DNA of 64,000 bases from Acidobacteriota bacterium (GCA_003222275.1 QHVJ01000150.1:10518-74517); one strand, 5' to 3'; numbered from the stretch's first letter, positions 1 through 10,765 are shown. The notes: generated by a model from the sequence alone, not told the origin. A program made the numbers and translations.

Positions 1-257
1 ATCGCGGCGGGGAGCTGCGGGTGGGCGTTCTGGATGAGGAAATGGTCGACGACGCTTTCGCCCGCCACCTCCCGGCCGGCCGCCATCGACGACTCGACGT
101 CGGCCACCATGCCGCCGATCATGATCAGGTACTTGCCGCGCGGTACGATGAGGGTCATGAGCAGCTCGACGCCCGCCGTCTTCATCATGGCGTCGGTGGC
201 TTCGATGCCCCGGGCGATGGAGCTGGTCTCCAGGAAACCGATGGCAGGCCCGTTCAT
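1..257 (-). CDS. Bacterial microcompartment shell protein, BMC-H domain (PduA/EutM-like). Partial: the 3' end runs off the left window edge.
   Basis: Hand translation of the minus strand from the ATG at 257: MNGPAIGFLETSSIARGIEATDAMMKTAGVELLMTLIVPRGKYLIMIGGMVADVESSMAAGREVAGESVVDHFLIQNAHPQLPAA. This aligns along its length with the BMC domain of PduA (IGxxETxGxxxxIEAxDAMxKxAxVxL ... GDVxAVxxAxxAG ... VHVIxxPH). The ORF track omits it because no stop lies inside the window. Confidence 0.6.
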   Translation of the reverse strand, partial: MNGPAIGFLETSSIARGIEATDAMMKTAGVELLMTLIVPRGKYLIMIGGMVADVESSMAAGREVAGESVVDHFLIQNAHPQLPAA

Positions 258-282
258 GATCGGAGAAAGGATACGCTGAACC

Positions 283-2109
283 ATGGCCGTTGACGACGAC
301 ACCCTGCACAAGATGGCCCAGCGGCTGCGCCGCGATTGCCTCGAGTCGACCGCGGAGGCCGGTTCGGGCCACCCGACGAGCTGCATGTCCGCGGCGGAGC
401 TGGTCTCGGTCCTCTTCTTCGACGAGATGCGCTTCGACCCCCGCGATCCGAGCGGGCGGGACCAGGACGTCTTCGTGCTCTCCAAGGGCCACGCCGCCCC
501 CGTGCTCTGGGCCGTGCTGAAGGAAGCCGGCGGCATCGACGACGACCTCAAGACGCTGCGCCGCTTCGACAGCCGGCTGGAAGGCCATCCCACGCCGCGC
601 GTGCCGTGGGTGAGGGTCGCCACCGGGTCGCTCGGCCAGGGCCTGTGCGCGGGCGTGGGCATGGCCTGGGCGCGCAAGCTCGACCGCTCCGAGGGGCGCG
701 TCTACGCGCTCCTCGGCGACGGCGAGGCCGCCGAGGGCTCGGTGTGGGAGGCGGCCGAGTTCGCCTCGTTCTACGCCCTCGACAACGTGTGCGCGATCTT
801 CGACGTCAACCGGCTCGGCCAGAGCGGCCCCACCATGTACGAGCATCACCTCGAGCCGTACCTCTCACGGCTGCGCGGGTTCGGTTGGGAGGCGGTGGGG
901 GTGGACGGCCACGACGTGAAGGCGGTGAGAGAGGCGTACGCCCGCGCCCGTGCCACCAAGGGCAAGCCCTTCGGCATCGTGGCGCGGACCTTCAAGGGCA
1001 AGGGCGTGTCCTTCCTCGAGAACAAGGACGGCTGGCACGGCAAGGCAGTCAAGAAGGGCGAGGAGCTGAGGAAGGCCCTCGCCGAGCTGGGCGATACGTC
1101 GGTCACGATCAAGGTCGAGCCGCGGCGCTATGCGCCCAGCCAGGCGCCCTCGCCCAGCGAGCCACGCGTATCCCCCGCCTACGAGCTGGGGCAGGAAGTC
1201 GCGACCCGGGAGGCCTACGGCAGTGCGCTGGCCGCCCTGGCGCGGACGGCACCCCAGGTCGTGGCGCTCGACGGCGACGTCAAGAACTCCACCTTCAGCG
1301 AGAAATTCAAGGAAGCGGCCCCCGAGCGCTTCGTCGAGGCGTACATCGCCGAGCAGAACATGGTCGGCGCGGCCCTCGGCATGTCCACCGAGGGCAAGGT
1401 CCCGTTCGCGTCCACCTTCGCCTGCTTCCTCACCCGCGCCTACGACTTCATCCGCATGGCCGTCTACTCGCGGCCATCGCACCTCGTGCTGTGCGGCAGC
1501 CACGCCGGGATCTCGATCGGCGAGGACGGCCCGTCGCAGATGGCCCTCGAGGACCTGGCGATGATGCGCGCGCTCCTCGGCACGACCGTCCTCTACCCGA
1601 GCGACGCCGTGAGCGGCGAGCGGCTCGTGGAGACGGCCGCCCGCACACAAGGCATCGTCTACATCCGCACCTCACGTCCCAAGACGAAGGTGCTCTACGA
1701 CAACGGCGAGGCCTTCCCGGTGGGGGGTTCGAAGACGCTGCGGTCCGGCCCCAAGGACCGGGTGACGATCGTGGCCGCGGGGGTTACGGTGGCCGAGGCG
1801 CTGAAGGCGCACGAGGTGCTCGGCAAGGACGGGATCGCGGCCCGGGTCATCGATCTCTATTCGGTGAAGCCCGTCGACGAGGCCACGCTGCGCAAGGCGG
1901 CGGAGGAGACGCGCGGGATCGTGACCGTCGAGGACCACAGCGCCGCGGGCGGCATCGGCGACGCGGTGGCGGCGGCGGTCGCGGGTCGGACGCGCGTCGA
2001 GATCCTCGGCGTGCGCGACATTCCCCGCTCGGGCAAGCCGGAGGAGCTGATGAAGGCCTACGGGATCTCCGCGGAGTCGATCGTCGAGGCGGCACGTCGT
2101 TTAAGCTGA
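283..2109 (+). CDS. tkt: Transketolase (single-polypeptide short form, 608 aa)
   Basis: TPP-binding N-terminus (GSGHPTS, GDGEAAEGSVWEA) plus transketolase pyrimidine-binding and C-terminal domains. The start may instead be Met11 (313). Confidence 0.85.
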   Translation: MAVDDDTLHKMAQRLRRDCLESTAEAGSGHPTSCMSAAELVSVLFFDEMRFDPRDPSGRDQDVFVLSKGHAAPVLWAVLKEAGGIDDDLKTLRRFDSRLEGHPTPRVPWVRVATGSLGQGLCAGVGMAWARKLDRSEGRVYALLGDGEAAEGSVWEAAEFASFYALDNVCAIFDVNRLGQSGPTMYEHHLEPYLSRLRGFGWEAVGVDGHDVKAVREAYARARATKGKPFGIVARTFKGKGVSFLENKDGWHGKAVKKGEELRKALAELGDTSVTIKVEPRRYAPSQAPSPSEPRVSPAYELGQEVATREAYGSALAALARTAPQVVALDGDVKNSTFSEKFKEAAPERFVEAYIAEQNMVGAALGMSTEGKVPFASTFACFLTRAYDFIRMAVYSRPSHLVLCGSHAGISIGEDGPSQMALEDLAMMRALLGTTVLYPSDAVSGERLVETAARTQGIVYIRTSRPKTKVLYDNGEAFPVGGSKTLRSGPKDRVTIVAAGVTVAEALKAHEVLGKDGIAARVIDLYSVKPVDEATLRKAAEETRGIVTVEDHSAAGGIGDAVAAAVAGRTRVEILGVRDIPRSGKPEELMKAYGISAESIVEAARRLS

Positions 2110-2151
2110 TGTGCCGCGCTCCGCTGCGCGCGGCAGACGCTGAGCTCGGAA

Positions 2152-3384
2152 CTACGCCCCCGGGGTGGCCGGCGTCTCAATGCGCCGTATCACGACCGCG
2201 GTGGCGTCGTCCTCCCACGACCCGCCGTCACCGAAGGCGAAGGCGGCGGTGAAGATGCGGTCGAGCAGCTCGGCGGCGGGACGCCCGTTCGACTCCTCGA
2301 CGACGCGATGCAGTTGGGTCTCCCCGAAGAACTCGCCCCCCTTGCTCCGGCGGTCGAAGATACCGTCCGTCAGGGCGACGAGCACGTCCTCCGGTTCCAT
2401 CCGCACGACGCCCCGGTTGAACTTCACCTCGGGCAGCGGCCCGATGACCGTCCCCCCGATCGTCAGCTCGCTCACGCGGCCGCGGGAGAACAGCAGCGGC
2501 GGCTGGTGGCCGGCGTTGACGTAGATCAGGTTGCCCGACGCCTCCAGCTCGCCGTAGAAGACCGACACGAAGCGGCTCGACAGGCGACTGCGGTGGATCA
2601 CGCGGTTCAGCTTGGTGAGCACGGGCGCCACCTTCAGCTCGCGCTCGATCCCCATGCGCAGCCCCGTCACCAGGTCGCGGACGAGCAGCGCCGCGGGCAG
2701 GCCGTGGCCGCTGGCGTCGCCGATGGCGAGACCGAGCATCTCGCCGTCGAAGGGTATGAAGTCGAAGAAGTCGCCCCCCACCTCCTCCGTCGGCACCGAG
2801 CGCGCGGCCAGCTCGTAACCGGGGAACTCGGGCAGCTCGTCGAGGAGCAGGCTCTGCTGGATCTCGGCCGCTTCGCGGAAGCTGCCCCGCGCGCGCTCCT
2901 CCATGAGCCGGGAGCCGAGGGCGGCGCGGACGGTGTTGAGGGCGAAGTCCAGCTCCTCGCGGACCCAGCCCTCGCCCACGAGCAGGAAGATGAGGTGGCG
3001 GTCGCCGCGGGAGCCGACGGCCAGCGCCGCCGCCGGGCCTCTCGGAAGGATGCCGGTCCGGGCCGGCGTGCCTTCCGCCCCCGGGTCGGGGAAGATGTAC
3101 ACGCCGTGCTGCAGGACGAGCGACACCGGCGGAGCGCCCCGGTCGAGGGAATCGCGGGTGGGGTTGCGCAGGTCGCCGACCGCTTTTACGAAAGTGAAGC
3201 CCTCGCGCCCTTCCGCGTAGAGGACGGCGGCGCGCAGGCGCAGGTCTTCCCGCAGCGTGCGAAAGGCCTCTTCGAGGAAAGACACCACGACCTTCTTGCC
3301 GGGGCGGGAGACGTCGAGCGCGGCGAGCACGCTGTCGAGCCGCCGGTAGAGGAGCTTGGCCTCGAGTCGGGAAGAGCCGTCCAT
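2152..3384 (-). CDS. PP2C-family (SpoIIE/RsbU-like) protein serine/threonine phosphatase with an N-terminal sensor-like domain
   Basis: PP2C/SpoIIE motifs GGDFFDF...LAIGDASGHGLPAAL...VNAGH...LTDG. Start chosen at MDGSSRLEAKLLY (3384); the ORF extends to 3495, but the extra N-terminus is low-complexity. Confidence 0.7.
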   Translation of the reverse strand: MDGSSRLEAKLLYRRLDSVLAALDVSRPGKKVVVSFLEEAFRTLREDLRLRAAVLYAEGREGFTFVKAVGDLRNPTRDSLDRGAPPVSLVLQHGVYIFPDPGAEGTPARTGILPRGPAAALAVGSRGDRHLIFLLVGEGWVREELDFALNTVRAALGSRLMEERARGSFREAAEIQQSLLLDELPEFPGYELAARSVPTEEVGGDFFDFIPFDGEMLGLAIGDASGHGLPAALLVRDLVTGLRMGIERELKVAPVLTKLNRVIHRSRLSSRFVSVFYGELEASGNLIYVNAGHQPPLLFSRGRVSELTIGGTVIGPLPEVKFNRGVVRMEPEDVLVALTDGIFDRRSKGGEFFGETQLHRVVEESNGRPAAELLDRIFTAAFAFGDGGSWEDDATAVVIRRIETPATPGA

Positions 3385-3886
3385 GAGAACCCGTAATCGT
3401 AGCAGACGTGCGGGCCTGCTCTTTCTCGCCTTCCTCGTGCCGGCCTCCGCGATGGCCGAGGAGCTGTCGCGGACGCTTCCTCGCGAGACTCCCACCGCCG
3501 AGACGCTGGCGGCGTGGGAGCGCGCCGGCGGGCAAGCGGAGGACGGAGAGCAGGTGGTCGTCTATGCGCTGTTCGTCAACCCGCTCCGGCCCGGGCTCTA
3601 CGAGGTCACCCGCTTCCGGATCGATCGCATCGAAGGGCGCCCCGGAGGCCGGGAGCGACGGGTGAAGGACACCGAGAAGCTGATCTGGAACGCGCGGCCC
3701 GGTACGCGGGAGCCCCTCCTCTGCTACGAAAGAACGGCTCGTCGCGGGTGGCGGACGCTCTGGCTCCGCCGGTGGGAGTGGCGGCGCCTCGCACCGGGCT
3801 CCGCCGAATACCGGGCGGCGATGTTCACCGCGCTGCGGGTGTACGGCCTCCACCGCGCCCGGCTGGGCCTGCCCCCCCTGGGCTAG
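3383..3886 (+). CDS. Hypothetical secreted protein
   Basis: Start at MRTRNRSRRAGLLFLAFLVPASAMAEE (signal peptide); no recognisable family. Overlaps the divergent PP2C start by 2 nt. Confidence 0.4.
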   Translation: MRTRNRSRRAGLLFLAFLVPASAMAEELSRTLPRETPTAETLAAWERAGGQAEDGEQVVVYALFVNPLRPGLYEVTRFRIDRIEGRPGGRERRVKDTEKLIWNARPGTREPLLCYERTARRGWRTLWLRRWEWRRLAPGSAEYRAAMFTALRVYGLHRARLGLPPLG

Positions 3887-4371
3887 GCGAGTCTCCGCAA
3901 TATTCGCGGGGGAAGGTACCATGCGAGCGTGCCGCCGTCGGCCAGCGATCCGGGTACGTCGACGAGGGCCACCCCCCCCTTCTTGAAGGTGAGCCGCTCA
4001 CCGTGCGAGGTCCCGAGCAGCCGCCCCAACAGGGTGGAGAGATCGGGCTCGTGCCCGACGATGGCTACCGTGGATTCCGCGGGAAAGCGCCCGAGGGCAG
4101 TGGCGATCTCGTTATAGCTGCCTCCGGCCAGGGCGGGCTCCTCCTCCACCTCCACCTTTCCCCACGCCTTGGCCGCGATCTCGGCCGTCTGGACGGCGCG
4201 AGGCAACGGGCTGCTGAGGAGCGTATCGGGACGCTTCATGAGCCGGGCCAGTCCCTCGGCGGCCCGCCGGAACCGCCGTACGCCCCGCTTGGTGAGGGGT
4301 CTCTCGTCGTCGGGCATGTCGGGGGCGCCGCGGGGTACAGCGGTTGCGTGTCGGATCATCAGCAATCGCAT
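3883..4371 (-). CDS. sixA: Phosphohistidine phosphatase SixA (histidine phosphatase superfamily)
   Basis: MRLLMIRHATA...LTKRG...SSPLPRAVQTAE...GHEP motifs; 162 aa. Confidence 0.75.
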   Translation of the reverse strand: MRLLMIRHATAVPRGAPDMPDDERPLTKRGVRRFRRAAEGLARLMKRPDTLLSSPLPRAVQTAEIAAKAWGKVEVEEEPALAGGSYNEIATALGRFPAESTVAIVGHEPDLSTLLGRLLGTSHGERLTFKKGGVALVDVPGSLADGGTLAWYLPPRILRRLA

Positions 4372-4450
4372 GGCGATGCTCCCTCCTCGGGTGTCAGGTC
4401 TATCTTCTATTCTAGTCCCCGGTTCCGCGGCGGGGGGACGCGGAAGCGCG

Positions 4451-5338
4451 TCAGGCCGCGGTCCGCGAAGCGCCCATGGCCTCGAGCCCGCGGCGCACCG
4501 TGGCCGAGGGAGACAGGGCCAGGAAGGAGCGGTGATGCTGGTGGCTCCTTTCGAGGAAGAACGCCTCCTCTTCGCGGGCCGCGGCGGCGAGCGACGCCTG
4601 GCCCCGGGCGACGGCGGCCGACGCCTGGCGGCCCATCCAGCACGAGAGCACGTGGGCGTCCCGGACGTGGCCGAGCGCGTCCTGGAGCTGCCGGAAGAGC
4701 GCCGGCGCCTCGCTCGTCTGGCCCGTCATCTTCTCGGCCAGCTCGGCCGCGTAGCGAAGCCGGCGCAACCGGATCCGAAGGCGATGCAGCGGGGCGGGGT
4801 CGAAACCGTCGCCCAGGGCCTCGAGCGACTCCAGGATGGCGGTGCCGCGCACGTCCCGCGCGTCGCGCAGGCGAAGAAGCGCGGTGAAGACCAGCTCCGC
4901 CCGGTGGGAGACGACGACCCGCAGGTCGCGCCGCACGCGAGCGATGTCGATGTCCATGAGGGCCTCGGCCATCCGGACCCGGCTCCGGCTGCGCGCCGAC
5001 CGCAGGCGCTGGCGCAGCGTGCGCCGCTCGGCCTCCGTCTCTCCGCGCTCCCTCAGCCGCTCGTCGAAAAGGGCGACGCCGACGTCGAGGTCGCGGCTCG
5101 TCCCCGCCGAGCGCGTCAGCTCGCGCAGGATCCGGCGGGCCCGGCGCACCCGCCGGCCGTTGGGCTTGCGGGCGAGGAGCGGCAGCGCCACGCGCAACCG
5201 GCGGCCCGCCACCCGCATCTGGTGGATCGCCTCCTCGTCGCCGGCCAGGGCCGGCGGGAGCTGGCGGAAGAGGGCCCGGACGTGTGCCTTCAGTAGGGGA
5301 GTGGCGTGATCGACGATGGTCGTGGGCACGGCAGTCAA
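4451..5338 (-). CDS. CHAD domain-containing protein (polyphosphate-granule associated)
   Basis: CHAD signature with conserved His/Arg: HQMRVAGRRLRVAL, RLRIRLRRLRYAAEL. Basic helical protein of 295 aa. Confidence 0.8.
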   Translation of the reverse strand: MTAVPTTIVDHATPLLKAHVRALFRQLPPALAGDEEAIHQMRVAGRRLRVALPLLARKPNGRRVRRARRILRELTRSAGTSRDLDVGVALFDERLRERGETEAERRTLRQRLRSARSRSRVRMAEALMDIDIARVRRDLRVVVSHRAELVFTALLRLRDARDVRGTAILESLEALGDGFDPAPLHRLRIRLRRLRYAAELAEKMTGQTSEAPALFRQLQDALGHVRDAHVLSCWMGRQASAAVARGQASLAAAAREEEAFFLERSHQHHRSFLALSPSATVRRGLEAMGASRTAA

Positions 5339-5389
5339 TCCCGAAAGGGGAGAGGGTATACCACGTCCCCTCGTCCGAACTCAACCCTA

Positions 5390-5425
5390 TTGTCGCAGAG
5401 TCGTCACCCGGGCAAGGCTTACAAT
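5390..5425 (+). promoter_or_regulatory. Possible Pho box (TTGTCGC-agag-TCGTCAC) followed 12 bp later by -10 TACAAT, upstream of ppx
   Basis: Two 7-mers with a 4-bp spacer occupy the -35 position relative to a good -10 hexamer 8 nt before the ppx ATG. It matches the porin box CCGTCAC at 6/7 in the second half-site only. Confidence 0.3.
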
Positions 5426-5433
5426 GAGCAAAG

Positions 5434-7002
5434 ATGAGGATCGCCGCCATCGACATCGGCAGCAACTCCTTTCACATGGTCATCGTAGAGAGCCGCTCCG
5501 GCGGGTTCCACGTGATCGACCGCGAGAAGGAGATGGTCCGCCTCGGCGAGCGCACGCTTTCGCGGGGCCGGCTGTCCGCGGCCTCCATGCGGCGGGGACT
5601 CGACGCGCTGCGCGAGTACAAGCGGCTGGCGGACATGCACGGCGTCGACAAGCTCCTGGTCGTGGCCACCTCCGCCGTGCGCGAGGCCGCCAACGGCGAG
5701 GATTTTCTCGAGCGTGTGGGCGGGGAGATCGGCTTCTATCCGCAGGTCGTCTCGGGCGAGGAAGAGGCCCGGCTGATCTATCTGGCCGCGCTCCACAGCG
5801 TCAACCTCGAGGGGCGGCGTACCCTGGTGGTGGACATCGGCGGGGGCAGCGTGGAGCTGGCCATGGGGGTGGGCCCCCAGGTGGAGTGGGCCGTCTCCGA
5901 GAAGCTCGGCGTGCTGCGAATGACCGAGCGCTTCGTCCACAGCGACCCCCTGGCCGCCCGCGACGAGCGGCGCCTGGTCGGCTACGTGAGGCAGTTCATG
6001 GTGCCGCACGCCGCCCGGGCGCGGGACGACGGCTTCGACCTCGTGGTCGGGACCTCGGGGACAGCCTTGGCCCTGGGGGCCATGGCCACTGCAGCGGGAA
6101 TACTACCCGAATCGCTCCACCACCTGACGGTGCCGGCGGCCGCTCTTCACGCCCTGCGCCGGCGCCTCGTCGGGACCACGCTCAAGGGGCGCCGGCGGCT
6201 GCCCCTCATGGACGAGCGGCGCACCGACATCATCGTGGCCGGCGCCGTCGTGCTGGACGAGATACTCGACGCTCTCGAGGCGAAGGAGATCGTCCTCTGC
6301 GAGTGGGCGCTGCGCGAGGGGTTGCTGCTCGACTACTTGACGGGCCACAAGCGCGCGGTCGCGCGCGCCGAGGCGTACCCCGACGTTCGCCGCCGCAGCG
6401 TCGTGGCCCTGGCCGAGCGCTGCCATTTCCACGAGGCGCACGCGCGGCAGGTGGCCGCCCTCGCCCTGGGCCTGTTCGACGCGACGGCGTCGCGGCACGG
6501 TCTGCAGGCACCGGAGCGCTCGCTGCTCGAGTACGCCGCGCTCCTTCACGACGTCGGCCGGCACATCTCCTATCCCGACCGGCACCGGCACACCGAGTAC
6601 CTCGTCCGCAACGGCGGGCTGCGCGGCTTCGATCCCCGCGAAGTCGAGATGATGGCGCTCGTGGGGCGCTATCACCGGCGCGGCGTCCCGCGGAAGAAGA
6701 ACCTGGCCTTCGCCGCGCTGGCCCGTCCCGACCGCGAAGCCGTGCGCATGATGGCGGGGCTCCTGCGGCTGGCCGACGCGCTCGATCGCAGCCATCGCGG
6801 CGTCGTCAAGGCGGTGGCCGTCTCCGAGACGTCACGGGGCCTGCGCTTGCGCTGCGAGGCGGAGGGCGACGCCGGCCTGGAGCAGTGGGCGTCGGGACGG
6901 CGGGTCGATCTGCTGGAGCGCGCGCTCGACCGGGCGATCCAGGTCGAATTCGCGCCCGTGCCCGCGGCCACCGCGGTGCGCGCGCGAGCGGCGGGCGCCT
7001 GA
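5434..7002 (+). CDS. ppx: Exopolyphosphatase / guanosine pentaphosphate phosphohydrolase (Ppx/GppA) with C-terminal HD domain
   Basis: Ppx/GppA N-terminus IAAIDIGSNSFHMVIVE...VATSAVREAANGEDF. HD region LLHDVGRHISYPDRHRHTEYL. Confidence 0.85.
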   Translation: MRIAAIDIGSNSFHMVIVESRSGGFHVIDREKEMVRLGERTLSRGRLSAASMRRGLDALREYKRLADMHGVDKLLVVATSAVREAANGEDFLERVGGEIGFYPQVVSGEEEARLIYLAALHSVNLEGRRTLVVDIGGGSVELAMGVGPQVEWAVSEKLGVLRMTERFVHSDPLAARDERRLVGYVRQFMVPHAARARDDGFDLVVGTSGTALALGAMATAAGILPESLHHLTVPAAALHALRRRLVGTTLKGRRRLPLMDERRTDIIVAGAVVLDEILDALEAKEIVLCEWALREGLLLDYLTGHKRAVARAEAYPDVRRRSVVALAERCHFHEAHARQVAALALGLFDATASRHGLQAPERSLLEYAALLHDVGRHISYPDRHRHTEYLVRNGGLRGFDPREVEMMALVGRYHRRGVPRKKNLAFAALARPDREAVRMMAGLLRLADALDRSHRGVVKAVAVSETSRGLRLRCEAEGDAGLEQWASGRRVDLLERALDRAIQVEFAPVPAATAVRARAAGA

Positions 7003-8612
7003 TGCCCAGCCCCCGCCGGCGCAGCCTGACCCCCAAGACCGCCCCCCCCGTGCCGGTCCCGGCGGAGGCCCCGCGGCCGGTGGCCGTGATCGACATGGGC
7101 GCCAGCGCCATCCGGCTCCTCGTCGCGGAGGCGGCTCCCGGCCAGCCCGTACGCATTCTCGAGGAGGCCTCCCGCGGCGTCCTGCTCGGCAAGGACACCT
7201 TCACGCACGGACGGCTCGGCGCGGCCACGGTGGAAGCCACGCTCAAGGCCCTCGAGGGCTTCCGCCGGATCATGGACGGCTACGGCGTCGTGCGCTACCG
7301 GGCGGTGGCGACGAGCGCGGTGCGGGAGGCCCAGAACTCCGACGCGTTCCTGGACCGGGTGCGCCTTCGCACCGGCATCGACGTCGAGGTGATCGACGGC
7401 TCGGAGGAGAACCGCCTCACGTACATGGCGGTGCGCGAGACGCTGCGCGACCACCCCGCCCTCACCAGCGGCGACACCCTCCTCCTCGAGGTCGGCGGGG
7501 GGAGCGCCGACATCTCCTTCCTGCGGAAGGGGCAGCCGATCAACTCCGGGACGTATCCCCTCGGCTCGATCCGCATGCGGCAGAGCCTCGCCTCCTGGCA
7601 CGGCAGCCAGGAGCAGGGGATGCGCCTCCTGCGCCGGCACATCCACAACGTGGTCGACGACATCCGCCGCGAGATCCCGCTGCGCGAGGCGCAGCACGTC
7701 ATCGCCCTCGGCGGCGACGTCCGCTTCGCCGCGCAGCAGATGGTGGGGGATCGGGCGGACGGCGCCCCCGCCATCCTCGGGCGCGAGCCCTTCGTGGCCT
7801 TCTGCGACCAGGTCACCTCCTGGGACGTCGAGCAGCTCGTGGAGCAGTATCACCTGCCGCAGGCGGAGGCGGAGACGCTCGTGCCCGCGCTCGTCGCCTA
7901 CCGCGAGCTGCTGCAGGAGACGGCGGCGCAGGAGGTGATCGTCCCCGACGTGTCCCTTCGGGCCGGCCTCCTCCTCGACGTGGCGCAGGTGGACGCCGGC
8001 CAGGGGATCGAAGACTTCAGCCGGCAGGTGCTCTCGAGCGCGGTCGCGCTCGCCGAGAAGTACCGCTGGGACGCGCCGCACTCGAAGAAGGTCGCGCAGC
8101 TCGCGACCCGGATCTTCGACGAGCTGAAGGCGGAGCACGGCCTCGGCGATCGCGAGCGGCTGCTCCTGGAGGTGGCCGCGCTCCTGCACGACATCGGCAA
8201 CTACGTCAACCTCCGCGGCCACCACAAGCACACCTGGTACCTGCTCTCGGTGTCGGACATCTTCGGCCTTTCGGGTGACGACATGGCGCTGGTCGCGAAC
8301 GTGGCCCGCTATCACCGCCGCGCCCTGCCCCAGAAGTCGCACCTGCCCTACATGGCCCTCGACCGCGAGGCCCGCGTGGTGGTCAACAAGCTGTCGGCCA
8401 TCCTCCGCCTCGCCAACGCGCTCGACGCCGACCATCTCCAGAAGGTGAAGGACGTGCGGGTGCTGTCGGAAGAGGGGGACTGGGTCCTGGACGTGGATGG
8501 GGCGGGCGACCTCACCATGGAGCGGCTGGCTTCCCTCGCGCGCGGCGATTTCCTGACCGAGGTGTTCGGCCGGAAGCTCACCTTCCGGGAATCGAGGGCC
8601 CGCGCATCGTGA
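7002..8612 (+). CDS. ppx: Second Ppx/GppA-family exopolyphosphatase with HD domain (paralog)
   Basis: Start MPSPRRR at an ATGA overlap with the upstream ppx stop. VAVIDMGASAIRLLVAE...VATSAVREAQNSDAF and HD region LLHDIGNYVNLRGHHKHTWYL. The 5316..8612 ORF upstream of 7002 is antisense/frame noise over the first ppx. Confidence 0.8.
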   Translation: MPSPRRRSLTPKTAPPVPVPAEAPRPVAVIDMGASAIRLLVAEAAPGQPVRILEEASRGVLLGKDTFTHGRLGAATVEATLKALEGFRRIMDGYGVVRYRAVATSAVREAQNSDAFLDRVRLRTGIDVEVIDGSEENRLTYMAVRETLRDHPALTSGDTLLLEVGGGSADISFLRKGQPINSGTYPLGSIRMRQSLASWHGSQEQGMRLLRRHIHNVVDDIRREIPLREAQHVIALGGDVRFAAQQMVGDRADGAPAILGREPFVAFCDQVTSWDVEQLVEQYHLPQAEAETLVPALVAYRELLQETAAQEVIVPDVSLRAGLLLDVAQVDAGQGIEDFSRQVLSSAVALAEKYRWDAPHSKKVAQLATRIFDELKAEHGLGDRERLLLEVAALLHDIGNYVNLRGHHKHTWYLLSVSDIFGLSGDDMALVANVARYHRRALPQKSHLPYMALDREARVVVNKLSAILRLANALDADHLQKVKDVRVLSEEGDWVLDVDGAGDLTMERLASLARGDFLTEVFGRKLTFRESRARAS

Positions 8613-10765
8613 TGAAGGCCCCCGGACGGCCGCGCAAGAAGGAGCCCGAGCTCTTCATCAACCGGGAGCTGTCCTGGCTGGAGTTCAACGGCCGCGTGCT
8701 CGAAGAAGCGATGGACCCCGCCACCCCGCTGCTGGACCGGCTGAAGTTCGCCATCATCGTCTCGACGAACCTCGACGAGTTCTTCATGGTCCGGGTGGCG
8801 GCTCTGAAGCACGCATTCGCGGAGGGCGACAACGAGCCCGACCTCGCCGGGCTGCGCCCGCGCCAGCAGCTGCACGTGATCGCCGAGCGCGCTCATGAGA
8901 TGGTGGACACCCTGGGCCGGACCCTGACCGAGCAGATCCTGCCCGCGCTCGCCGAGCACGCCGTGCGCATCGTCCCCCTGGCCACGCTGGAGGAGGCGCA
9001 GCGCACGTTCCTCGCCCGTTACTTCCGCGGGGAGGTGCTTCCCGCCCTCACGCCGCTGGCCACCGACGCCTCGCGGCCCTTTCCCCGGCTGGCCAACCTC
9101 AGCCTGAACCTCGCGATCCTCCTCGCGCCCGGCGAGGGCGAGGAGCAGCCGCGGCTGGCCCTCGTCCAGGTTCCGGGCGGGCTGCGGCGGCTGGTGCGGC
9201 CGGTCGGAGGTGAGGGCAGCACCTACGTGCTCCTCGAAGAGGTCATCCGTGCCGAGCTGGCCGAGCTGTTCCCCGGCCAGCGGGTGCTGGCCTCGGCCGC
9301 CTTCCGCATCGCCCGCGACGCGGAGATAGAGCTGGACGACGAGGGCGGCCGGCCCTACCTGGAAACGGTGGAGGAGGAGCTGAAGAAGCGTCGCAGCAGT
9401 CAGATCGTCCGCCTGGAGGTCGAGTCGGAGGCGGACGACGCGCTGCTCGCCCTGCTGCTGGAGCGCCTGGGGGTAGAGATCCCTGACGTCTACCACGTCC
9501 GCGGCCCGCTGGACATGCGGGCGCTGCAGCCGCTCGTCGACATTCCCTCCCTGGAGCACCTGCGGGAGCCGGCCCTGAAGCCCCTCCCGGTGCTCGACGA
9601 GCACGAGCTGCGCAACATCTTCTCGGTCGTGGCCGAGCGCGACGTGCTCCTCTACCACCCCTTCGACTCGTACGAGCCGGTCCTCGCCTTCCTGTCGACC
9701 GCCGCCTCCGATCCCGACGTGCTGGCCATCAAGCAGACCCTCTACCGCACGAGCGGCGATTCCCCGGTGGTGCAGGCGCTGGCCCGGGCGGCGGAGAACG
9801 GCAAGCAGGTCACGGTGGTGGTGGAGCTGATGGCCCGCTTCGACGAGCAGTCGAACATCCGGTGGGCGAAGAGCCTCGAGGAATCGGGCGCCCACGTGAT
9901 CTACGGCATCCAGGGGTTCAAGACGCACGCCAAGGTCTGCCTCGTCGTCCGTCGCGGCCGGCAGGGTATCGAGCGCTACGTCCACATGGGCACCGGCAAC
10001 TACAACGACCGCACCGCGCGCGTCTACGCCGACTTCGGCTCCCTGACCGCGGACCGGGTCGTGGGCGAGGACGTGTCGGCCTTCTTCAACGCGCTCACCG
10101 GCTACTCCGACCCGCCGAAGATGAAAAAGCTGGCCATGGCTCCGACCAACCTCCGCGAGCGCTTCCTTCGCCTCATCGAGCGCGAGCGGCGCCGGGCGGA
10201 GGAGGGGCAGGCGGCGGAGATCCGGGCCAAGATGAACTCCCTCGTCGACGAGGAGATCATCCGCGCCCTCTACGATGCGTCCGGGGCCGGCGTGCGGATC
10301 CGGCTCAACGTGCGCGGCATCTGCTGCCTGCGTCCGGGCATCAAGGGCGTCAGCGAGACGATCGAGGTGATCTCCATCGTGGACCGCTTCCTCGAGCACG
10401 CGCGCGTCTACCAATTCCGCAACGGCGGCGACGAGGAGGTGTACCTCTCCAGCGCCGACTGGATGCCCCGGAACCTGGACCGCCGGATCGAGCTGCTCTT
10501 CCCGGTGACCGCGCCCGAGCCGCGCCGAAAGGTCCTCGAGGTGATGGACGCCATGTTCCTCGACAACGTGAAGGCTCGGCGACTCATGCCGGACGGGACC
10601 TACAAGCGCAAGCGACCGCCCAAGGGCGAGGAACCCTATCGCGCCCAGATCCAGCTCTACCGCGAGTGGAAGAGGACCCTGGAGCGCACTCGGGCCGCGA
10701 CGAGCGTTGCGTTCGAGCCGGCCCCCGCCCCCGGACCCGTCGAGAAGGTATCGTCGACCGGATGA
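8609..10765 (+). CDS. ppk: Polyphosphate kinase 1
   Basis: 718 aa; PPK1 N-terminus FINRELSWLEFNGRVLEEA and PLD-like C-terminal domains (HAKVCLVVRR). ATGA overlap with the upstream ppx. Confidence 0.9.
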   Translation: MMKAPGRPRKKEPELFINRELSWLEFNGRVLEEAMDPATPLLDRLKFAIIVSTNLDEFFMVRVAALKHAFAEGDNEPDLAGLRPRQQLHVIAERAHEMVDTLGRTLTEQILPALAEHAVRIVPLATLEEAQRTFLARYFRGEVLPALTPLATDASRPFPRLANLSLNLAILLAPGEGEEQPRLALVQVPGGLRRLVRPVGGEGSTYVLLEEVIRAELAELFPGQRVLASAAFRIARDAEIELDDEGGRPYLETVEEELKKRRSSQIVRLEVESEADDALLALLLERLGVEIPDVYHVRGPLDMRALQPLVDIPSLEHLREPALKPLPVLDEHELRNIFSVVAERDVLLYHPFDSYEPVLAFLSTAASDPDVLAIKQTLYRTSGDSPVVQALARAAENGKQVTVVVELMARFDEQSNIRWAKSLEESGAHVIYGIQGFKTHAKVCLVVRRGRQGIERYVHMGTGNYNDRTARVYADFGSLTADRVVGEDVSAFFNALTGYSDPPKMKKLAMAPTNLRERFLRLIERERRRAEEGQAAEIRAKMNSLVDEEIIRALYDASGAGVRIRLNVRGICCLRPGIKGVSETIEVISIVDRFLEHARVYQFRNGGDEEVYLSSADWMPRNLDRRIELLFPVTAPEPRRKVLEVMDAMFLDNVKARRLMPDGTYKRKRPPKGEEPYRAQIQLYREWKRTLERTRAATSVAFEPAPAPGPVEKVSSTG

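Follow-up and report, generated by a model that had tools for sequence, protein, structure and literature searches.

With a probability of about 0.8, the shell-gene fragment at the left edge of the window (the whole stretch of 64,000 nucleotides that was analysed) covers the 5' half of a gene that encodes a BMC-T(s) shell protein and stands alone, as a satellite of the ACI-type microcompartment. The same explanation, to which this probability applies as a whole, treats the divergently oriented transketolase (tkt) as an ordinary cytosolic enzyme, a neighbour by chance in this lineage. The edge gene belongs to BMC-T(s), the tandem non-permuted PduT-like class, and not to BMC-H. The features discussed are listed below.

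1..257, minus strand: 5' part of the BMC-T(s) shell gene, first 85 codons, comprising the N-terminal BMC domain and the start of the inter-domain linker
258..282, no strand: divergent spacer of 25 bp between the two start codons
283..2109, plus strand: transketolase of the short single-chain type, 608 aa (Pfam Transketolase_N, Transket_pyr, Transketolase_C)
9427..9975 of scaffold L001, minus strand: complete BMC-T gene, 182 aa, with two PF00936 stretches

On the minus strand, window positions 257..1 give a stop-free translation of 85 residues (MNGPAIGFLETSSIARGIEATDAMMKTAGVELLMTLIVPRGKYLIMIGGMVADVESSMAAGREVAGESVVDHFLIQNAHPQLPAA); the 85-codon open frame begins MNGPAIGFLETSS. This fragment matches Pfam PF00936 (BMC) with E=3.6e-21 and 75.3 bits (gathering score 24.5), and the match, residues 5-77 on model positions 1-74/75, corresponds to the full BMC domain. 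The PF00936 shell-protein gene that the preliminary description had claimed at the edge is therefore confirmed by the profile search. Its account of the gene arrangement was also accurate: the shell gene (257..1, minus strand) diverges from tkt (283..2109, plus strand), and exact counting of 258..282 gives the 25-bp gap between the two start codons. The BMC-H label did not hold, the fragment being the first of two BMC domains in a BMC-T of 182 aa.

The complete gene is found in L001, a 41-kb soil-metagenome scaffold retrieved via the exact transketolase protein. Window positions 1..8056 align with L001 9719..17778 at 99.55% identity over 8,060 bp, and thus L001, being near-identical to the window, reveals 9.7 kb past its left edge. 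The missing 97 codons of the 182-aa gene lie there, at L001 9427..9718. Two stretches of the full-length protein are matched by PF00936 (143.3 bits, E=2.3e-42), the second BMC domain occupying residues 97-171; both domains span model positions 1-74/75 in the canonical (non-permuted) order. The solved BMC-T 3NWG is matched full-length with E=3e-42 (protein residues 5-179 on 3NWG 4-180), and the PduT structures 3PAC and 3N79 at about 1e-35 (residues 4-180 on 3N79 3-181). The protein is assigned to BMC-T instead of BMC-H because the gene runs to 182 aa with a second domain and aligns end-to-end with tandem structures; a BMC-H chain has a single BMC domain in about 90-120 aa, a BMC-T(s) chain two non-permuted ones in about 180-205 aa. 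NCBI and ENA gene calls likewise give 182 aa. An upstream in-frame minus-strand ATG at window position 284, which could yield a protein of 191 aa, was rejected as the start, since the residues before MNGP are not conserved (L001, L002, P0003).

The D-x-x-x-K edge motifs, D22/K26 and D114/K118, are invariant in an alignment of 21 sequences, and the C-terminus of domain 2 carries VIPRAH, a PRxH-like motif. The pore cysteine of PduT (Cys38), a ligand of its 4Fe-4S cluster, aligns with Pro39, with Arg40 as the next residue. All acidobacterial sequences of the alignment carry this Pro-Arg pair; most sugar-phosphate-utilisation (SPU1) proteins of Elusimicrobia have Ala-Arg at the position, and more distant relatives retain the cysteine. 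The whole 182-aa protein has zero cysteines, and its domain-2 loop is two residues shorter than that of PduT. PduT proper, the Fe-S shell protein, was considered and ruled out by the replacement of the cysteine with Pro39 and by the PduT equivalog TIGR02526, which the protein does not pass (102.2 bits vs. a cut-off of 250.3). Comparison with the orthologues in L002 and L082 gives dN/dS values of 0.08-0.12; the gene is therefore maintained under strong purifying selection.

Relatives were collected by a scan of a genome collection with one genome per species, which gave 80 loci. The closest matches, at 70-91% identity, are metagenome-assembled genomes (MAGs) of Acidobacteria, Vicinamibacteria and Blastocatellia, and the NCBI names of the cluster members agree with an acidobacterial host. 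As judged from these sequences, the host can be taken as a Vicinamibacteria-like acidobacterium within the range of subdivisions 4 and 6 that is characteristic of ACI.

The gene stands alone among these relatives too. BMC-H and BMC-P genes are absent within ±10 kb of BMC-T in all 25 fetched acidobacterial loci, and so are genes for aldehyde dehydrogenase, PTAC and DeoC. All-against-all clustering of the ORFs within ±6 kb revealed no neighbour common to all loci, the only universal members being BMC-T and its shadow-frame ORFs. Below these rank clusters (AstE/AspA-like, ECF sigma factor, ABC transporter, gluconate-2-DH subunit 3) that are limited to 5-9 loci each. Six-frame translations of the window and the 25 acidobacterial loci contain no PduS-like G-x-G-G-x-G-F-P motif. 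A class II aldolase occurs in a single acidobacterial locus, L008, where tblastn placed it 6 kb from BMC-T; it was considered as a mark of the ACI main locus and rejected, as it adjoins a carboxyl transferase and has no shell genes beside it.

Such an isolated position corresponds to what has been catalogued for the ACI type, which is exclusive to Acidobacteria, chiefly subdivisions 4 and 6, and has scattered satellites (Sutter et al. 2021, PMC8217296). According to this catalog, the ACI main locus comprises a class II aldolase, a 2-hydroxyacid dehydrogenase, BMC-H and a BMC-P triplet, and the aldehyde dehydrogenase is encoded on a satellite; PduT-type BMC-Ts are found "occasionally" at satellite positions, paired with PduS. 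Its BMC-Ts tree has two relevant entries, DMF83_13245 (A0A2V7U826; "ACI (sat), 182aa, pduT-like") and DMF78_13520 ("ACI (sat), 189aa"). Both are located in the clade Ts_asparagus_SPU1-Elusimicrobia, amid SPU1 main-locus proteins that include one from the MAG RIFCSPHIGHO2_02_FULL_57_9 (PMC8217296).

The protein clusters assembled here also include members of 182 aa and 189 aa from the same soil MAG series (PYQ16247.1, PYQ20027.1 and PYQ37884.1, named "propanediol utilization protein"). Their likeness to DMF83_13245 and DMF78_13520 is one of lengths, MAG series and clade neighbours. The catalog attaches a satellite to the main locus of the same genome (PMC8217296), and the designation "satellite of ACI" used here rests on this consolidated-locus assignment of the orthologues. 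Since such satellites are listed in PMC8217296, this type of gene, the clade it falls in and its isolation are already on record. A search of the later literature on ACI or Vicinamibacteria compartments returned nothing relevant.

The nearest non-acidobacterial relatives of the BMC-T are SPU1 proteins of Elusimicrobia, one of them from the RIFCSPHIGHO2_02_FULL_57_9 MAG named above. These orthologues are 52-59% identical over their full length, and the one in locus L021 reaches 68%. The locus of that MAG (L030) encodes 5'-nucleotidase, TIM, PTAC, BMC-H, BMC-P, aldehyde dehydrogenase (AldDh), BMC-T, RpiB, two BMC-P and DeoC; L021 (54% GC) encodes PTAC, BMC-H, BMC-P, AldDh, PilZ, BMC-T, two RpiB, two BMC-P, DeoC and BMC-H. 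Both are complete SPU1 loci. The guess of a sugar-phosphate type in the preliminary description is thus echoed indirectly, the closest main-locus orthologues being those of Elusimicrobia SPU1, while the catalog files the acidobacterial proteins as satellites under ACI.

By analogy with PduT and with BMC-T1 of Haliangium ochraceum (HO), the protein would trimerise as a hexamer mimic and tile the facets of the ACI shell. The pore would form an open, cluster-free and positively charged central conduit. Since the Fe-S cysteine is lost and the domain-2 loop is shortened, the protein is likely to be a shell tile and not an electron relay. To judge from the literature on the group, the remaining ACI parts (BMC-H, the BMC-P triplet, class II aldolase and 2-hydroxyacid dehydrogenase) would be encoded elsewhere in the genome, and the aldehyde dehydrogenase of the metabolosome on another satellite. 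A location separate from the main locus may permit independent regulation of shell permeability, a suggestion made in the catalog for satellites at large (PMC8217296).

The isolation of the gene could also be read in another way. The host could lack a complete microcompartment, and the BMC-T could be an orphan with a compartment-independent role or what remains of an SPU1-type locus gained by horizontal transfer. The protein is encoded alone in 25 of 25 fetched loci and, according to the Pfam tables of called genes, in three further contigs; its clade branches within the SPU1 proteins of Elusimicrobia, suggesting transfer. A decaying remnant, however, is at odds with a dN/dS of about 0.1 and with 70-91% identity across two acidobacterial classes, and the motifs used for tiling are invariant. 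In addition, the catalog ties the orthologues to consolidated ACI loci, i.e., to genomes holding a main locus, and the subdivisions in which they occur (4 and 6) are those of ACI. An orphan protein is accordingly considered unlikely.

A more far-reaching possibility, also regarded as improbable, is that the cysteine-less Pro-Arg BMC-T, lineage-wide in subdivisions 4 and 6, was captured from an SPU1-type locus and is always kept apart from other shell genes. It could then serve as a gate under its own regulation and alter what the ACI compartment takes in (e.g., phosphorylated sugars), or have a role outside a compartment in hosts without the main locus.

The transketolase reaches 904 bits with the NCBIfam equivalog NF004559, well over the cut-off of 488, its residues 6-607 covering model positions 16-623 of 627. 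This end-to-end alignment shows no N- or C-terminal extension able to serve as an encapsulation peptide. A tkt gene lies within 5 kb of BMC-T in L001, L002, L016, L017, L019, L020, L082, L083 and the P0004 contig. Such proximity, over distances of 25 bp up to about 5 kb, is restricted to Vicinamibacteria-like contigs and absent from all Blastocatellia-type loci.

The tkt start is well marked. A CCATGG palindrome (281..286) includes the tkt ATG, and a Shine-Dalgarno-like GGAGAAAGGA is located inside the spacer at 262..271 (plus strand). L002 and L082 likewise have the AGAAAGGA/GGAGG motif (GGAG/AGGA) ahead of the tkt ATG. On the BMC-T side no purine-rich RBS motif is present in the window, L002 or L082. 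Scanning the divergent region for the sigma-70 consensus gave zero sites, this consensus being uninformative for Acidobacteria.

With a spacer of only 25 bp, the promoter of tkt would necessarily extend into the 5' end of the BMC-T coding region, and the BMC-T gene would be either leaderless or transcribed from inside tkt. The overlapping promoters or leaderless transcripts that had been proposed for this region thus follow logically from the gap, but the tight spacing is not conserved. Since the spacer of 25 bp in the window contrasts with 73 bp (L002) and 141 bp (L082 and L083) in relatives, the tight head-to-head spacing is best regarded as a local accident.

The same data bear on the possibility that tkt and BMC-T form a co-regulated divergent pair, a sugar-phosphate module whose compartment would handle transketolase substrates or products. 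Such a pair would fit the presence of tkt within 5 kb in nine Vicinamibacteria-like contigs, the linkage of the BMC-T clade to SPU1 loci elsewhere, and the overlap of regulatory regions forced by the short spacer. It is nevertheless very unlikely. The pair is missing in all Blastocatellia-type loci with the same BMC-T, the two genes lie anywhere between 25 bp and 5 kb apart, with intervening genes and a spacer of unconserved length, and the transketolase is of housekeeping type, without an encapsulation extension. Moreover, the other side of tkt is syntenic with an unrelated polyphosphate block, as plain lineage synteny predicts.

The preliminary description had further proposed a microcompartment locus just outside the window and named BMC-P/BMC-T shell genes, AldDh, PTAC and DeoC as what a leftward extension should reveal. 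To the left of BMC-T, L001 encodes, in order, a dodecin (convergent with BMC-T), a hypothetical protein of 195 aa, a periplasmic binding protein, a multihaem-cytochrome/TPR protein and a spermine-synthase/TPR protein. BMC-H, BMC-P, aldehyde dehydrogenase, PTAC and DeoC are all absent from these 9.7 kb. The gene is completed there with no other shell genes near it, which is the outcome that the description itself had set against its proposal; a locus adjoining the window is therefore not borne out.

Searches by domain and by sequence gave the same picture over the surrounding DNA. No PF03319 (BMC-P) or extra PF00936 gene occurs on either side, over 9.7 kb leftward and 64 kb rightward. By tblastn, PduA, EutN, CcmL and the BMC-T itself detected no further shell gene in L001 or the 64-kb window, and SPU1 AldDh, PTAC, DeoC, RpiB and TIM, together with FucA, had zero matches in the 64-kb window. 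In L082, L083 and the P0004 contig, which belong to the same genus-level group and were judged from Pfam tables of called genes, the order is polyphosphate block, SpoIIE, tkt, BMC-T, dodecin, hypothetical protein, spermine-synthase/TPR protein and TonB-dependent receptors; no shell or core-enzyme genes appear in these tables.

That the edge gene forms the end of a main locus lying just to the left (shell genes with AldDh, PTAC and DeoC) would agree with the usual clustering of shell genes and with the SPU1 loci (AldDh, PTAC, RpiB, DeoC) of the closest non-acidobacterial orthologues, but it is extremely improbable, being contradicted within 10 kb by L001 (99.55% identical, 9.7 kb leftward without PF00936 or PF03319), by the continuation of L082, L083 and the P0004 contig into TonB-dependent receptor genes, and by a window devoid of AldDh, PTAC, DeoC, RpiB and class II aldolase.

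The edge gene is best regarded as a functional satellite shell gene of a kind already catalogued for soil Acidobacteria, and its significance lies mainly in annotation. Public records name such proteins "BMC-H", "CcmL/EutN" or "propanediol utilization protein"; a suitable annotation would be that of a pduT-like BMC-T(s) shell protein which lacks the Fe-S site and belongs to an ACI-type microcompartment as a satellite. Such a gene should not be taken as a flag for an adjoining metabolic organelle locus. The SPU1-clade origin and the arginine-bearing pore loop of the ACI BMC-T provide a small hint on the substrate class.

Among the known systems, PduT of Salmonella and Citrobacter (3N79, 3PAC) and the Desulfitobacterium homologue 3NWG share with the present protein the tandem non-permuted BMC domains, a length of about 182-184 aa and the DxxxK edge motifs. 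The protein described here differs from PduT in having Pro39 in place of the 4Fe-4S cysteine, in being cysteine-free and in having no PduS partner. BMC-T1 of Haliangium ochraceum (5DIH; solved HO shell) is a single-layer trimeric BMC-T(s) at the hexamer positions of the facets and is matched with E=4.5e-22; it is a more distant relative and, unlike the edge gene, is encoded in the HO main locus.

The Elusimicrobia SPU1 BMC-T(s) proteins have likewise lost the Fe-S cysteine, carry an arginine after its position and have a shortened second pore loop. Their genes are located inside a complete locus and their loop is Ala-Arg, whereas here the gene stands alone and the loop is Pro-Arg. The pduT-like ACI satellites are mentioned in the catalog as paired with PduS, whereas the loci considered here have no PduS motif; in other respects they correspond to the edge gene, sharing its phylum and subdivisions, lengths of 182 or 189 aa, a position away from BMC-H and BMC-P, and probably a clade beside Elusimicrobia SPU1.

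In five Vicinamibacteria-like contigs, the gene for the tandem-domain shell protein BMC-T is accompanied by a gene for the flavin-binding protein dodecin (67 aa), which is located just left of the window, at 9214-9417 of the 99.55%-identical soil-metagenome contig L001. The dodecin gene is convergent with the BMC-T gene and lies 6 to about 115 bp off its 3' end in L001, L002, L082 and L083. The arrangement differs in L016, where dodecin is encoded upstream of BMC-T and co-directionally with it. The association is recurrent among these five contigs; it is absent from the Blastocatellia loci.

On the other side, a conserved polyphosphate-related block (window 2152-10765) is situated to the right of the transketolase gene tkt, with a gene order common to the window, L082, L083 and the P0004 contig.

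Polyphosphate-related block (window coordinates)
2152-3384, minus strand, SpoIIE-type phosphatase
3452-3886, plus strand, hypothetical protein
3883-4371, minus strand, His_Phos_1 protein
4451-5329, minus strand, CHAD protein
5434-7002, plus strand, first of two Ppx/GppA genes (522-aa ORF, as called in L001 and L082)
about 7002-8612, plus strand, second Ppx/GppA gene
8609-10765, plus strand, PPK1

Part of the 1098-aa ORF at 5316-8612 is a high-GC shadow frame. Its Pfam matches begin only from residue 603, and the first Ppx gene is read in a different frame.

The tkt start codon is contained in a CCATGG palindrome (281-286), so that the minus strand also carries an ATG, at 284, in frame with BMC-T. 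JGI gene calls start BMC-T at this codon, giving a 191-aa version, the nine extra residues of which show no conservation among relatives.

Public annotations of BMC-T orthologues vary between "microcompartment protein CcmL/EutN" and "propanediol utilization protein". Both names are misleading for a BMC-T that has no cysteine and whose genomic surroundings contain no pdu genes; the former denotes the wrong fold family, since it belongs to BMC-P.

A class II aldolase (PF00596) was found near BMC-T in only one locus, the Blastocatellia contig L008 (9209-10027). It lies 6 kb from BMC-T, adjoins a carboxyl transferase, extends about 50 residues beyond the PF00596 domain and has no shell genes close to it.

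An SPU1-like (sugar-phosphate microcompartment) main locus is present in L021 (1-7793), a contig of 54% GC that was assigned to an Elusimicrobia bin. Its BMC-T (68% identity) carries the acidobacterial signatures LPRGKY and a shortened ARN-QPGGKG loop, and a PilZ-domain gene is inserted between the aldehyde dehydrogenase and BMC-T genes. This locus may represent a donor-like arrangement for the acidobacterial satellite BMC-T, encoded apart from any main locus.
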